Part shown: in pieces, positions 1,534 to 43,652 of the stretch
Layout: every line of letters starts with the position of its first letter
How positions within the stretch are numbered: the first letter of the stretch is position 1
DNA from: Candidatus Woesearchaeota archaeon
Lineage (GTDB): Archaea > Nanobdellota > Nanobdellia > Woesearchaeales > UBA11576
Reading direction: 5' to 3'
Length of the DNA: 64,000 bases
NCBI GenBank assembly: GCA_018675335.1
Contig: JABGYH010000007.1
Location: forward strand, 308,232-372,231
Position numbers and translations under genes: made by a program
Notes under the pieces: generated by a model
The model's database searches: none
Told to the model about the DNA's origin: nothing
The model's input: the letters and a program-made list of their open reading frames with translations, nothing else

Positions 1534-2880
1534 TTAATTAGAATCGTGTTTAATAGGCATTGCATCTTCAGGAACACTCATCCCTTCAGAAGAAGAATCG
1601 TTTTTATTAGATTCGGATTTTTCAGTATTTTCTGACTCACTATTTTTTGACTCTTTTTTTTGAGAATCATTTTCGCCATCATTTTGATTCGAATTAGTTT
1701 GTGCAGGATCTTGTGCTAGTTCTTGTTCTGGACGTTCAGTTGCCTTAACACTTTCTCCCTCGATAAAATCTTCAAGTTCCGGATGAAGATTTCGATCCTC
1801 AAAAATATCATCTTTAACAACAACATCTTTTTTAACTGGTAAATCTTTATGAGTTTCTAGTAGTTGATCTGCAAGTTCTTTTGCGTGATCTGAATTATTT
1901 TTTTCTAAATCCTCTTCGAGTAATTTTGCTGATCCATCAACTTCAGAGTTAGACTTATCTGATTCGAAACCATTATTTGAGTTAGAATCAGCTTCATTTC
2001 CAGACGTAGATTCGCCCCCTGCTACTTCAACAGACTCAGCCTCTTGGTTTTCAGATTGTGAAGGAATAGGTACAACATCCAAATCTCCAATTTTTTCAGC
2101 AGGTTCTTGTGCTTTATTTTTGCCAGAATCATCATCAGAAATTATTTGTACTTTTTCTAAAGGAACTGCAGAGTCATATGTTTCAAGAGATCCAACTTTT
2201 TCACCCTCTACGTTATCTTTTTTTGTTGTGTCACCCAATTTATCTAGATTCGCATCTTGATTTTTGGTGTCAATTATTTTTTCTGGATCTTGTGGAAGTG
2301 CTAATTGAGCTTGAGATGAACCATCAAGTTTATTCTCGTAATCTTCCACTTTCTTTTGTGGAAGGACATTTTTTAAATCTGCAAAATCTTTGAATACTTC
2401 TTTAATTGCTTTTTTATGAGGTAGATCGAAATAATCCAAAAACTTTTGAGTGGTTTTGAGAAGATAAGATCTCCCTTGACGTTCTTTAGACAGAAATCCT
2501 TGCTCAACTAAATCTTTAATATGTTCATATGCTTTATTAGATCTAATATTTACTACTTCTGCTTGCAAAATTGGTTGTTTCCACGCAACAATTGCTAATG
2601 TTTCAAGAATTGCTTTAGACATTTCAGTGTGAGGATTAATACTATGAACAATTCCCAAATATTTTTCGCGAACTATTAATTTCCAACCATCTCCCTCTTC
2701 TATAAGACTTATAGGTGAATTTCGAGTTTTATAATCTGATTTGATGTCATTTACGGTTTCTTTTACTAATCCGTCTTCTTTAATGTCTAATAAAAGTTTA
2801 ATTTCAGTTAAAGTAATTACTCTACCACTAGAAAAAAGAATTGCTTCAATTTCATTTTTTAATTCTGAAAATTCAGCCAT
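1534..2880 (-). CDS. scpB: Segregation and condensation protein B (ScpB)-like, with a long acidic C-terminal tail
   Basis: N-terminus EIEAILFSSGRVITLTEI…; two winged-helix-like halves (…LAIVAWKQPILQAEVVNIRS…EQGFL), then a roughly 250-aa D/E/S/N-rich low-complexity tail. Confidence 0.65.
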   Translation of the reverse strand: MAEFSELKNEIEAILFSSGRVITLTEIKLLLDIKEDGLVKETVNDIKSDYKTRNSPISLIEEGDGWKLIVREKYLGIVHSINPHTEMSKAILETLAIVAWKQPILQAEVVNIRSNKAYEHIKDLVEQGFLSKERQGRSYLLKTTQKFLDYFDLPHKKAIKEVFKDFADLKNVLPQKKVEDYENKLDGSSQAQLALPQDPEKIIDTKNQDANLDKLGDTTKKDNVEGEKVGSLETYDSAVPLEKVQIISDDDSGKNKAQEPAEKIGDLDVVPIPSQSENQEAESVEVAGGESTSGNEADSNSNNGFESDKSNSEVDGSAKLLEEDLEKNNSDHAKELADQLLETHKDLPVKKDVVVKDDIFEDRNLHPELEDFIEGESVKATERPEQELAQDPAQTNSNQNDGENDSQKKESKNSESENTEKSESNKNDSSSEGMSVPEDAMPIKHDSN

Positions 2881-8001: not shown

Positions 8002-8250
8002 ACTTTAGAACTCATTTAAAAGAATTTCTGGAAAGCTTTTTATAATGCCCTGAGTTATTCAATAATTAAGTAGTGTAAACCTGCGATGATTTAGTGAACA
8101 CCAGCTGAGCCTTGCGGCGATGATGGACGGTAGTAACTTAAGAGCGGGGCACAAATACTTTACAAAAATAGAAATTACTCAACAAACAAATTCTAACCGA
8201 AAAAAATATGTTAAAACTCAAAAAAAAATCTTACGCTAAAGAAAAAATAA

Positions 8251-9802: not shown

Positions 9803-10007
9803 GTGGGGGTAGCAAAGTATGGTCAAATGCGCTGGACTCAAGTTAAATTTGAGTGATGAGCTTATGCGATGAATAATTACGCATATGACTTTCCTATTAT
9901 GAGGAATCCAGTCCTTTAGTAGGTTCAGGGGTTCGAAATTAAATATGATTTTTTTAGTGCTTAAAACTAACTAAAAACCATATTTGACGATTGTCCCCTC
10001 CCCCACA
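9803..10007 (+). tRNA. tRNA-Leu(CAA) interrupted by two introns (canonical 37/38 intron ~63 nt plus a ~57-nt insertion in the T-loop)
   Basis: Acceptor GTGGGGG/CCCCCAC with discriminator A; D-arm GCA-AAGTATGGTCAAA-TGC; anticodon stem CTGGA/TCCAG with loop CTCAAG|intron|A; 15-nt variable arm TCCTTTAGTAGGTTC; T-stem AGGGG/CCCCT with TTCGAAA followed by a 57-nt insert before CCCCT. The BHB-like 3' half (TGAG helix plus 3-nt bulge GAA) is visible at the anticodon intron. Confidence 0.7.
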
Positions 10008-12587: not shown

Positions 12588-13118
12588 TTATGGTCGCATC
12601 CAACGAATTTCCCAGTAAGTAACATCAGTCTCAGCATCAACAACACCGATTAAAAGCCGTTTTTTAGTTGAGTTTGCAACACGATTTTTTGCAGAAAATT
12701 CATACCATGAAAAACTATCTGATTCTTTAACAGGATATACTAACCATTTGGCATGATCTTCACCAGGTTTCACACCACGATCGTAAACCCTAAAATCAGC
12801 ACCAAACTTAAGTGCAGTCTTAACAATATACCCTCTGTTTCTTAAATCCTTAAACACGCAGAATCTAGTCCAGAAATTATTTTCTTTTCTTAACGCTTTT
12901 TTAAGAAAATTCTGATCATCAAGTGGCTTATTACGAAGATCAGTAATGACAATACGTTTTTTTTGCATAAGATAATAAGCTTCAATAAGAGATAATTCTA
13001 CTCTGCTTTCAACAACAACCCCAAATCTACTTTGATTATAAAGTTCTCTTGCTATATCACTATCTTCAGTTAATACTCTTTCCTTAGCAAAAATTGCTTT
13101 AACAACTTGTTTTGGCAT
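12588..13118 (-). CDS. endA: tRNA-splicing endonuclease (EndA), short alpha4-type length (176 aa)
   Basis: Catalytic region FGADFRVYDRG…HAKWLVYPV…STKK matches the EndA Tyr/His/Lys core. Confidence 0.75.
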   Translation of the reverse strand: MPKQVVKAIFAKERVLTEDSDIARELYNQSRFGVVVESRVELSLIEAYYLMQKKRIVITDLRNKPLDDQNFLKKALRKENNFWTRFCVFKDLRNRGYIVKTALKFGADFRVYDRGVKPGEDHAKWLVYPVKESDSFSWYEFSAKNRVANSTKKRLLIGVVDAETDVTYWEIRWMRP

Positions 13119-13262: not shown

Positions 13263-13690
13263 ATTACAAACTCAATCGTACTCGATTATTAAAAAAAACT
13301 CAAAACAAAAATAAAATGCAACTAACATTTTTAGGCACCAACTGGTTACGCTCAGCTTGACACGCAACACCCAGTACGATTTCGCAAACTCAATCGTACT
13401 CGATTATTAAAAAAAACTCAAAACAAAAATAAAATGCAACTAACATTTTTGGGCACCAACTGGTTACGCTCAGCTTGACACGCAACATCCAGTACGATTT
13501 CATAAATTCAATCGTACGCAATTTTAAAAAAAAACTCAAAACAAAAACAAAATGCAACTAACATTTTTGGGCACCAACTGGTTACGCTCAGCTTGACACG
13601 CAACATCCAGTACGATTTCATAAACTCAATCGTACGCAATTTTAAAAAAAAACTCAAAACAAAAACAAAATGCAACTAACATTTTTAGGC
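13263..13690. repeat. 118-bp tandem repeat x ~3.6, each unit containing a TATA-like box and the first 27 nt of the RNase Z gene
   Basis: ATG of the repeated unit sits at 13316, 13434, 13552 and 13670 (period exactly 118). The first three copies continue caccaactggttacgctcagcTTGA (a 14-aa uORF). The fourth copy continues into the real rnz ORF. Confidence 0.9.
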
Positions 13691-14578
13691 ACTAGTGCCA
13701 TGGTTCCAACAAAGGAACGAAATGTATCAGGGATTTTTCTAGATTACAAAACAGAAGGAATACTATTTGATTGCGGAGAAGGAACGCAAAGACAGATGAA
13801 TATAACTGGAATAAAAAGATCAAAGGTTACAAAAATACTAATCAGCCATTGGCATGGAGATCACGTTTCAGGAATTATTGGCCTCATCCAAACAATGGGT
13901 TCAGATCAAGTAACTCACACAGTAAGAATATATGGCCCAACAGAAACTAAAAAAAGAGTTGAACATATGATGCAAACTTGCATATTTGATCAAAAAATAG
14001 AAATTGAAGTGATGGAACTTGAACCTGTGGGAACAGAAGTATTAAGATTTTTTGAAAACGAAAATTATGCACTAGAATGTGCTGCTCTTGATCATAAACT
14101 ACCTTGCATAGGATTTAATTTTATTCAAAAAGATCAGCTTAATGTGAGCATGGCAAAAATTAGCAAATTAGGACTGAGTGAAGGCCCATACTTAAGACAA
14201 ATTAAAGAAGGAAAAGATGTTACTGTAAACGGAATTAAAGTTCTTTGTAAAGATGTAACGTATCTTAAACCAGGAAAAAAAATAAGTTATGTTGCAGATA
14301 CTCAAACTTGCGAAGGTGCACTGAGACTCGCCGAAAATGCAGACATACTAATAAGTGAATGCGTTTATGCCTCATCAACACACCAAGAAAAAGCAGAACA
14401 ATACAAACACATGAGCGCAAAAGATGCAGCAATGCTTGCAAATCGGGCAGAAGCAAAAAAATTAATACTCACACACTTTTCTCAAAGATACAAAAACACA
14501 CAAGACATAGAAGAAGAAGCTAGCATGTACTTTGATAATGTAATTTGTGCAGAAGATTTTATGAAAATAAAAATTTAA
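13670..14578 (+). CDS. rnz: Ribonuclease Z (tRNA 3' endonuclease), metallo-beta-lactamase fold
   Basis: MQLTFLGTSAMVP…; HxHxDH (ISHWHGDHVSGI); C-terminal …LILTHFSQRY. Confidence 0.85.
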   Translation: MQLTFLGTSAMVPTKERNVSGIFLDYKTEGILFDCGEGTQRQMNITGIKRSKVTKILISHWHGDHVSGIIGLIQTMGSDQVTHTVRIYGPTETKKRVEHMMQTCIFDQKIEIEVMELEPVGTEVLRFFENENYALECAALDHKLPCIGFNFIQKDQLNVSMAKISKLGLSEGPYLRQIKEGKDVTVNGIKVLCKDVTYLKPGKKISYVADTQTCEGALRLAENADILISECVYASSTHQEKAEQYKHMSAKDAAMLANRAEAKKLILTHFSQRYKNTQDIEEEASMYFDNVICAEDFMKIKI

Positions 14579-17116: not shown

Positions 17117-17229
17117 AGCCCTTGGTGAGAGTTGAACTCACGACCTGCTGCTAACTCAAATAAACACATTTTACAAGTTCTGTGTTAGGATATACGAGGC
17201 AGCCGCTCCAGCCACTAAGCTACAAGGGC
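17117..17229 (-). tRNA. tRNA-Thr(CGU) with a ~40-nt canonical-position intron
   Basis: Reverse complement gives acceptor GCCCTTG/CAAGGGC; D-arm GCTT-AGTGGCTG-GAGC; anticodon stem GCTGC/GCAGC with loop CTCGTA|intron|A; variable loop AGGTC; T-arm GTGAG-TTCAACT-CTCAC. BHB 3' half: TGAG helix plus TTA bulge. Confidence 0.7.
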
Positions 17230-43173: not shown

Positions 43174-43382
43174 GGGCCCGTAGCCTAGCCTGGTAAAAAT
43201 CATCACTCACTCTGAGAATAATATTTGAAGAGTTTACTGATTTTTAGGTAAATAGGGCAACAGCCTTCTAACCAAACAAACTAAAGTTTGAGAAGAGAGC
43301 TGTGGGTCGAGGGTTCGAAATGTTTTAAGCGCTAGGTAAAACCGACCGAAATGCTTAAACCTCGAAAGTCCCTCCGGGCTCG
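43174..43382 (+). tRNA. tRNA-Arg(UCU) apparently interrupted by three introns (D-loop ~58 nt, anticodon 37/38 ~27 nt, T-loop ~49 nt)
   Basis: Removing three inserts yields a 74-nt cloverleaf: GGGCCCG-TA-GCCT-AGCCTGGTA-GGGC-A-ACAGC-CTTCTAA-GCTGT-GGGTC-GAGGG-TTCGAAA-CCCTC-CGGGCTC-G. BHB 3' half at the anticodon intron: GAAG helix plus AGA bulge. T-loop insert is flanked by duplicated TCGAAA. Confidence 0.55.
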
Positions 43383-43527: not shown

Positions 43528-43652
43528 GGTGGAGTCGCCAAGCCCGGTAAGGCGTTCGGCTGCAATAATTGGGATGATGAGCAACCAAAAATCATGGTTG
43601 TAATGATCTAGCAGATCCCGATCATTCGAGGGTTCAAATCCCTCCTCCACCT
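43528..43652 (+). tRNA. tRNA-Cys(GCA) with ~51-nt canonical-position intron
   Basis: Acceptor GGTGGAG/CTCCACC with discriminator U; D-arm GCC-AAGCCCGGTAA-GGC; anticodon arm TTCGG-CTGCAA|intron|C-CCGAT; T-arm GAGGG-TTCAAAT-CCCTC. BHB 3' half: GCAG helix plus ATC bulge. Confidence 0.6.

Follow-up and report, generated by a model that had tools for sequence, protein, structure and literature searches.

The 64,000-nucleotide (nt) stretch of Candidatus Woesearchaeota DNA analyzed in this study (hereafter the window) carries, at positions 12588..13118 of the reverse strand, an open reading frame (ORF) for a short tRNA-splicing endonuclease (EndA), together with four tRNA genes interrupted by seven introns. 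We consider it probable that the product of this ORF forms, by itself, a homotetrameric (alpha4-type) EndA which tolerates relaxed splicing motifs, and that the structural basis of this tolerance does not reside in any of the known specificity loops. The real tension between enzyme and substrates lies in four of the introns, which lack an inner helix (h′) adjacent to the bulge, and in the bulge-helix-loop introns of relatives that carry the same EndA family.

The EndA subunit and its type

The EndA gene, assigned from its ORF, profile matches, alignment and predicted fold, starts with ATG, and an in-frame stop located two codons 5′ of this triplet makes an N-terminal extension impossible. Most Woesearchaeota EndA homologues have a Lys/Glu-rich extension at this end (median 24 residues, up to 65), which the window protein lacks. 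Its 176-residue chain holds both EndA domains, each present once: PF02778 (N-domain) matches residues 7-71 (1.7e-11) and PF01974 (C-domain) matches residues 82-168 (2.3e-29). The TIGR00324 (endA) profile was matched at 118.7 bits versus a cut-off of 59.6, and an NCBI entry named "tRNA-intron lyase [Candidatus Woesearchaeota archaeon]" is 100% identical. Approximately 7,000 database proteins are related to the window EndA, and the best 120 of these (66-85% identical, with names referring mostly to Woesearchaeota or Nanoarchaeota) form the sample for the counts of residue conservation given below. The closest EndA among the representatives of GTDB, from whose genomes the related loci were taken, is 74% identical. 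The fused chains of the epsilon2 (three units, ~390 residues) and alpha'2 (two units, ~300 residues) architectures are not represented by this 176-residue protein.

Alignment with enzymes of known type revealed that the catalytic triad (Y112, H122 and K153) corresponds to Y115, H125 and K156 of M. jannaschii EndA and is invariant in all 120 homologues. The acidic L10 loop (D161-A-E163-T-D165) is similarly conserved, with D161 and E163 present in 120/120 and D165 in 118/120 homologues. The L10 sequence (VDAETDVTYWE) is like that of the M. jannaschii alpha4 enzyme (VDADGDIVYYN), and also like those of purely structural units, i.e. NEQ261 (VDSEGDVTYYE) and ARMAN-2 betaC (ADSETSVTYYK), whereas the loop has been lost in catalytic-only alpha subunits (NEQ205, VSDK--IEFIE; S. 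tokodaii, VNLTNGKIRY). The degenerate L10 that marks the catalytic alpha subunits of (alpha-beta)2 enzymes, to which M. kandleri alpha is a partial exception, is therefore not a trait of the window EndA, in which the loop is retained and conserved. With the triad and L10 in one chain, the window EndA has the full set of residues to be expected if each subunit plays a catalytic as well as a structural role.

Three further residues, R146, W173 and K104, correspond to R275, W384 and K228 of ARMAN-2 EndA, which hold or position the bulged base (PMC12397907); R146 and W173 form a cation-pi pair. At residue 149 (12672..12674) Asn replaces the His of the RVAHS motif, a substitution found only in the window EndA and in the 85%-identical protein P0002. 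Among the PDB sequences compared, this His is kept by catalytic units and not by structural units.

The AlphaFold (AF2) monomer model of the window EndA (pLDDT 86.7) was best matched, in a structure comparison, by M. jannaschii 1a79_A, over the whole chain (TM 0.89/0.91, root-mean-square deviation 1.8 Å). The ranking by sequence is the reverse, with NEQ205 as the best PDB match (5e-36), followed by M. jannaschii alpha4 (2.4e-30). Since its N-domain is incomplete at the start, NEQ205 covers only part of the model (TMq 0.70).

We also inspected the sites of the known specificity loops. At the CSL/ASL site the window EndA has 8 residues, as does the M. jannaschii enzyme, versus 19 in S. tokodaii; neither a CSL nor an ASL is present. 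A Lys-rich insert between the catalytic Tyr and His was described by Fujishima et al. 2011 (PMC3239211) and is named "L3" by Kaneta et al. 2018 (PMC5829648). Such an N. equitans-type insert is lacking: 9 residues separate the catalytic Tyr from the His, as in M. jannaschii, compared with 15 in NEQ205 and 14 in ARMAN-2, and this spacing is constant in 120/120 homologues and 82/82 genomic copies. Neither of the two kinds of specificity loop that occur in (alpha-beta)2 alpha subunits (CSL/L1 in the N-domain or the Lys-rich L3) was therefore found in the window EndA.

A second EndA-like ORF was not found in the 64-kb window, either with phmmer or with hmmsearch --max on six-frame ORFs. Extending the hmmsearch --max search to a total of 1.35 Mb, made up of the window and the EndA loci of 80 related GTDB genomes, revealed no EndA paralogue at a distance of up to 10 kb from EndA, and a database search with joined PDB fragments of NEQ261, a fragmentary query, yielded no candidates for a beta subunit. 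A prior sequence-only reading had described the ORF as a short, 176-residue, alpha4-like EndA, the single one visible in the window, and had proposed its alignment with the alpha4, (alpha-beta)2 and epsilon2 types. Both descriptions were borne out by the two Pfam domains, the triad, the acidic L10, the fold match and the searches of the window, and the alignment revealed alpha4-like traits with no CSL, ASL or L3 and no fused chain.

These results bear directly on a different subunit composition, namely an (alpha-beta)2 heterotetramer similar to that of N. equitans. In that case the ORF would supply only the catalytic alpha subunit, the gene for a divergent structural beta subunit would lie in another part of the genome, and relaxed specificity would be a property of the heteromer. 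N. equitans constitutes a precedent from DPANN (PMC5829648), and heteromeric enzymes usually accompany relaxed, non-canonical introns. However, the window EndA has kept the full N-domain and a structural-type acidic L10 of the kind missing from NEQ205 and S. tokodaii alpha, features that are invariant across the 120 homologues, and no EndA paralogue accompanies the gene in the window or within 10 kb of it in the 80 related genomes. We therefore regard such a heterotetramer as unlikely, although it is the alternative to which we give the most weight.

Several observations weigh against a homotetramer of broadened specificity: (i) the closest PDB sequence, NEQ205, is the catalytic subunit of the N. 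equitans heterotetramer, (ii) in the alignment, M. kandleri alpha also retains acidic residues in the L10 region, so that retention of L10 is suggestive and not decisive, (iii) the near-universal His of the RVAHS motif (118/120 homologues) is Asn149 in the window EndA, (iv) the EndA search of the window's own genome spans ~64 kb, and a beta subunit could be located elsewhere, (v) the three known specificity loops (CSL, ASL and the N. equitans-type insert) are absent, as judged from the sequence, and with them the known structural basis for relaxed specificity, and (vi) the alpha4 enzyme of M. jannaschii reportedly does not cut bulge-helix-loop substrates. The choice posed by the sequence-only reading, a second subunit or a broadened specificity, is a fair framing of the problem, and the evidence leans to the latter: the window EndA most likely forms a tetramer and acts with broadened specificity in the absence of a partner subunit.

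Introns of the tRNA genes

Default ARAGORN detected no tRNAs in the window, and the Rfam tRNA model (at the gathering threshold and at E<=1) found only Thr(CGU) and Cys(GCA). The multi-intron genes for Leu(CAA) and Arg(UCU) were missed by ARAGORN (both with default settings and with introns allowed) and by Rfam; they were located by a scan for GC-rich islands (the G+C content of the window is 30.6%), followed by a custom scan for paired acceptor strands around a possibly interrupted T-arm. These scans overturned the simpler view that the window holds only Thr and Cys genes with introns at 37/38 and that the Leu and Arg genes are a misreading.

The four genes are tRNA-Leu(CAA) (9803..10007, forward strand; two introns, spliced product of 86 nt), tRNA-Thr(CGU) (17117..17229, reverse strand; one intron, 73 nt), tRNA-Arg(UCU) (43174..43382, forward strand; three introns, 75 nt) and tRNA-Cys(GCA) (43528..43652, forward strand; one intron, 74 nt). 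The evidence for them comes from bulge-helix-bulge (BHB) geometry, combined with the acceptor/T-arm scan for Leu and Arg and with the Rfam match for Thr and Cys. Introns were placed according to a single rule, which requires an exonic 4-nt strand of the central helix (H) and a 3-nt bulge in which the cut follows nucleotide 2, with the complementary H strand plus bulge at the 3′ end of the intron. Splicing at these sites in silico produced four clean cloverleaves, which ARAGORN called as tRNAs of standard form with the identities Leu(CAA), Thr(CGU), Arg(UCU) and Cys(GCA). Relative L022 has exactly the D-arm of the spliced Arg (GCCUAGCCUGGAUAGGGC), and over its full length the spliced Arg(UCU) is close to the intron-less gene of relative L081.

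Three other ways of placing the introns were rejected. ARAGORN offered an alternative model of Cys, with an intron of 31 nt and a long extra arm; its anticodon stem would contain one U.U and two G.U pairs, and the clean H helix and 3′ bulge would be left unused. An unrestricted BHB scan of the precursors gave dozens of chance matches in this AT-rich RNA and was useless without the constraint that a tRNA be restored. The mirror-image BHB, with bulges located 5′ of H, is not equivalent to the real motif.

The central 4-bp H helix and the two 3-nt bulges are in the correct register in all seven introns, and H is fully paired (4/4) in six and paired 3/4 in Leu 59/60. The strict form (hBHBh′, with h and h′ of at least 2 bp adjoining the bulges) was observed in three introns (in what follows, an arrow marks the cut): (i) Leu 37/38 (9843..9905; 63 nt), with H CUCA/UGAG, bulges AG↓U and GA↓A, h of 6 bp and a weak h′ of three A-U pairs, (ii) Leu 59/60, located in the T-loop (9938..9993; 56 nt), with H UUCG/CGAU including one U.U, bulges AA↓A and UG↓U, h of 5 bp formed by the T-stem and h′ of 9 bp, and (iii) Arg 19/20, located in the D-loop (43194..43251; 58 nt), with H GCCU/AGGU, bulges GG↓U and AA↓A, h of 4 bp and h′ of 8 bp.

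The remaining four introns (4/7) have the relaxed hBH form, with no adjacent h′. In Thr 37/38 (17153..17192, reverse strand; 40 nt; H CUCG/UGAG, h of 5 bp) there is a well-formed 3′ bulge (UU↓A), and only 1 bp of h′ adjoins the 5′ bulge, which makes the motif hBH-like. Arg 37/38 (43271..43297; 27 nt; H CUUC/GAAG, 3′ bulge AG↓A, h of 5 bp) has an h′ of 5 bp only past a C.A mismatch, and the T-loop intron Arg 59/60 (43320..43368; 49 nt; H UUCG/CGAA, 3′ bulge AG↓U, h of 5 bp) has an h′ of 8 bp only past a 3x3 internal loop. In Cys 37/38 (43566..43616; 51 nt; H CUGC/GCAG, 3′ bulge AU↓C, h of 4 bp) the 5′ site is situated in a larger loop, with h′ of 4 bp past three extra nucleotides. Apart from that of Thr, all of these introns are on the forward strand.

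Archaeal EndA recognizes the shape of the RNA and not the position within the tRNA, and it is on the shape of the BHB that alpha4 and alpha'2 enzymes are strict; both also cut BHBs in pre-rRNA. The premise of the sequence-only reading, that alpha4 enzymes are generally strict for a canonical BHB at 37/38, thus has to be corrected, since the strictness concerns the motif and not its position. Its observation of non-canonical introns nearby (Leu 59/60, Arg 19/20 and Arg 59/60) was correct, and the extra inserts can be regarded as BHB introns, since all seven fit the BHB register and their excision restores standard tRNAs. Its suggestion that the tRNAs need relaxed specificity would apply to Arg 59/60 and to Thr, Arg and Cys 37/38. 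It would not apply to Arg 19/20 and Leu 59/60; of the three introns at non-canonical positions, these two are the best-formed BHBs in the whole window. Given shape-based recognition, the position of these two introns alone presents no paradox for an alpha4 enzyme. Motif inspection nevertheless revealed that the predicted substrate set as a whole departs from the alpha4 trait of accepting only strict hBHBh′ substrates.

Other Woesearchaeota genomes with an EndA of this family have introns that resemble those of the window or are more extreme; introns were accepted there only if splicing restored a tRNA. Bulge-helix-loop introns were found in Gly(CCC) of L059 (11 nt) and Leu(GAG) of L028 (14 nt). 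Arg(UCU) of L022 has a 13-nt intron at 29/30, Leu(GAG) of L047 has two introns, of 14 nt in the D-loop and of 35 nt at 59/60, and Pro(UGG) of L005 has introns of 16 nt and 17 nt at 37/38 and 59/60. The H helix at 59/60 covaries between genomes, UUCG/CGAA being replaced by UUCA/UGAA in L047, and this compensatory change supports the H pairing in the T-loop. Together, the four window introns and the bulge-helix-loop introns of relatives, all lacking the inner helix, indicate that EndA most likely tolerates relaxed motifs.

Two observations on Thr(CGU) in the related genomes may be added. Its intron measures 20, 40 or 45 nt where present and is missing from L025, which points to rapid intron turnover. 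In L031 (2002..2119) and L046 (5952..6044) the T-loop of this tRNA reads UGCAAYU, with G in place of the near-universal U55.

If the multi-intron Leu and Arg genes were decaying pseudogenes, they would place no demand on EndA, and the failure of standard tRNA finders to detect them would be in line with this. We consider this highly improbable, however, since the cloverleaves obtained by splicing at the sites defined by the BHBs are perfect and have the correct identity elements, intron-less orthologues of the Arg gene are nearly identical to its spliced form, and the 59/60 and D-loop intron positions recur in other genomes, with the compensatory change in H.

Folding calculations and a sequence motif are relevant to another explanation, according to which EndA is an ordinary strict alpha4 enzyme and the relaxed sites become BHBs with help, either from an intron-bound protein (e.g. 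L7Ae, bound to the box-C-like element UGAUGAGC that the Leu and Cys introns contain) or by refolding after other introns have left. The cost of forcing a BHB is 0-3.5 kcal/mol for six introns (0.1 for Arg 19/20) and 5.7 kcal/mol for Leu 37/38, whose intron can pair with the anticodon loop instead of forming a BHB; for most introns, the low cost favors assisted folding. Box-C-like motifs are present inside the Leu 37/38 intron (GUGAUGAGC) and the Cys 37/38 intron (AUGAUGAGC). The sequence TGATGAGC occurs just twice in the window (128 kb, both strands), at 9854..9861 and 43575..43582, in both cases on the sense strand and 10-12 nt inside a 37/38 intron (of Leu and Cys, respectively). A precedent for a C/D ribonucleoprotein inside a tRNA intron is the tRNA-Trp intron of Euryarchaeota. 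On the other hand, a matching box D is not evident, the motif is absent from the relaxed Thr and Arg introns, and the 11-14-nt bulge-helix-loop introns of relatives are too short for a helper site or a second helix, all of which makes a strict enzyme with helpers improbable.

TGATGAGC is part of a box-C-like heptamer (GUGAUGA/AUGAUGA). In both the Leu and the Cys 37/38 introns, the 7-8 nt just upstream of the motif can pair with the anticodon arm of their own tRNA, and in this pairing the nucleotide five positions upstream of AUGA faces C34 (Leu) or C39 (Cys), an arrangement that resembles the self-guided 2′-O-methylation of tRNA-Trp introns. We also considered the two introns as complete box C/D small RNAs (sRNAs), and rejected this since no credible box D or D′ was found at the right spacing.

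Predicted mode of cleavage and surroundings of the gene

In the homotetramer that we favor, four EndA copies would assemble via the C-terminal beta-strand and the acidic L10 (D161-x-E163-x-D165), docked in the basic pocket of a neighboring subunit. Two diagonal subunits would cut each 3-nt bulge after its second nucleotide, using Tyr112, His122 and Lys153, while Arg146 and Trp173 would clamp the flipped-out bulge base; the exons would then be joined by a ligase. An enzyme finding its sites by RNA shape could serve all seven introns, including those of the D-loop (19/20) and T-loop (59/60).

A more far-reaching proposal, which we find plausible and advance only tentatively, is that the whole EndA family is a true homotetramer, with no partner and none of the known loops, that removes relaxed hBH and bulge-helix-loop introns at 19/20, 29/30, 37/38 and 59/60 in vivo. 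If true, this would represent a fourth, insertion-independent route to broad specificity, for which neither subunit architecture nor an added loop is needed. Such a route might use the Arg146/Trp173 clamp, or else the turn of invariant residues (Lys117-Pro118-Gly119) that lies between the Tyr and His of the triad.

According to profile matches in the window, the surroundings of EndA are rich in RNA-processing genes. Its divergent neighbor encodes RNase Z, which processes tRNA 3′ ends (13670..14578, forward strand; TIGR02651, 312.7 bits versus a cut-off of 292.95), and genes for a GCD14-family methyltransferase, a Trm5/TYW2-family methyltransferase and an RNase J/beta-CASP-like protein are also located near EndA.

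The EndA-RNase Z intergenic region is 551 nt long, a length that is equal in an independent assembly (L001), and is filled by a tandem repeat (13266..13692) of 3.6 copies of a 118-bp unit, which are 95% identical. Each unit is a copy of the A-rich upstream region plus codons 1-8 of RNase Z (ATGCAACTAACATTTTTRGGCAC). A GC-rich 45-nt segment follows these codons in the three copies located upstream, which generates three identical mini-ORFs of 14 codons (MQLTFLGTNWLRSA) ahead of the real RNase Z gene.

Two other RNA-related features were noted. In the relative L028, an archaeal signal recognition particle RNA (Rfam RF01857, 124 bits; 2248..2518) is located ~2 kb upstream of EndA. In the window, a GC-rich (49%) intergenic island at 8070..8159, between the RNase J-like and Trm5-like genes, contains GAUGAU, CUGA and GAUGAUG elements at a spacing like that of box C/D sRNAs; the boxes are degenerate, and the island has no Rfam match.

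Comparison with known splicing endonucleases

The alpha4 EndA of M. jannaschii (PDB 1A79) shares with the window enzyme a two-domain chain of ~175 residues, the Tyr/His/Lys triad with the 9-residue Tyr-His spacing, and the acidic L10, and is its best fold match. The two proteins are 35-39% identical, and Trp173 of the window EndA is Tyr at the corresponding C-terminal clamp position. They also appear to differ in their substrates: M. jannaschii EndA is strict for hBHBh′, whereas the substrates predicted for the window EndA include relaxed motifs, and those of its relatives include bulge-helix-loop introns.

With the (alpha-beta)2 EndA of N. equitans (NEQ205 plus NEQ261, PDB 3IEY) the similarity extends to 48% identity with NEQ205, the GV.P motif, the Trp clamp and a DPANN host with disrupted tRNA genes. 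However, NEQ205 lacks the start of the N-domain and L10, has a 6-residue Lys-rich insert and needs NEQ261, while the window EndA combines an NEQ261-type L10 and the triad in one chain.

The epsilon2 EndA of ARMAN-2 (PDB 4FZ2 and 9W2K) and the crenarchaeal (alpha-beta)2 enzymes with a CSL process relaxed BHBs and introns at non-canonical positions, and have catalytic and bulge-clamping residues in common with the window EndA. They rely on inserted loops (Y160/K161 of the ASL; Lys of the CSL), neither of which is present in the window EndA, and they are three-unit (395 residues) or two-gene enzymes, in contrast to a single chain of 176 residues. In Thermoproteales and Thaumarchaeota, as in the window, a tRNA gene can contain as many as three BHB introns, distributed over the D-loop, the anticodon loop and the T-loop; the hosts in that case have (alpha-beta)2 enzymes with a CSL, whereas here the host is a member of the Woesearchaeota with an alpha4-like enzyme.

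The closest parallel to the puzzle itself is found within DPANN. According to Kaneta et al. 2018 (PMC5829648), alpha4-type EndAs occur in several DPANN lineages alongside many disrupted tRNA genes, i.e. a single alpha gene faces the same puzzle as in the window; the tRNA survey took in a Woesearchaeota and a Pacearchaeota genome, subunit type is considered to matter little for specificity, and a warning is given of undetected disrupted tRNA genes in DPANN genomes. Tolerance is tied there to L3, the Lys-rich insert of N. equitans and ARMAN-2 (PMC5829648), which the window EndA family lacks, at least as L3 is defined in Fujishima et al. 2011 (PMC3239211). Our literature search found no biochemical study of a DPANN alpha4-type EndA with such introns.

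Standard pipelines undercount the tRNAs of such genomes. Neither ARAGORN nor Rfam detects 2 of the 4 tRNA genes of the window. Some of the "missing tRNAs" of DPANN genome bins therefore probably reflect an annotation artefact due to multi-intron genes, as Kaneta et al. suspected.

The mismatch between an alpha4-type EndA and disrupted tRNAs is thus already known for DPANN, and the window is a worked example of it, to which the absence of L3 is the added detail. The cutting of imperfect motifs has been explained only by lineage-specific inserted loops, i.e. the CSL, the ASL and the eukaryotic ESL (PMC12397907). A 176-residue alpha4-like EndA with none of these loops, together with a defined set of natural substrates that extends from perfect BHBs in unusual places to relaxed motifs at the canonical site, offers a small and clean system in which this explanation can be tested in vitro.

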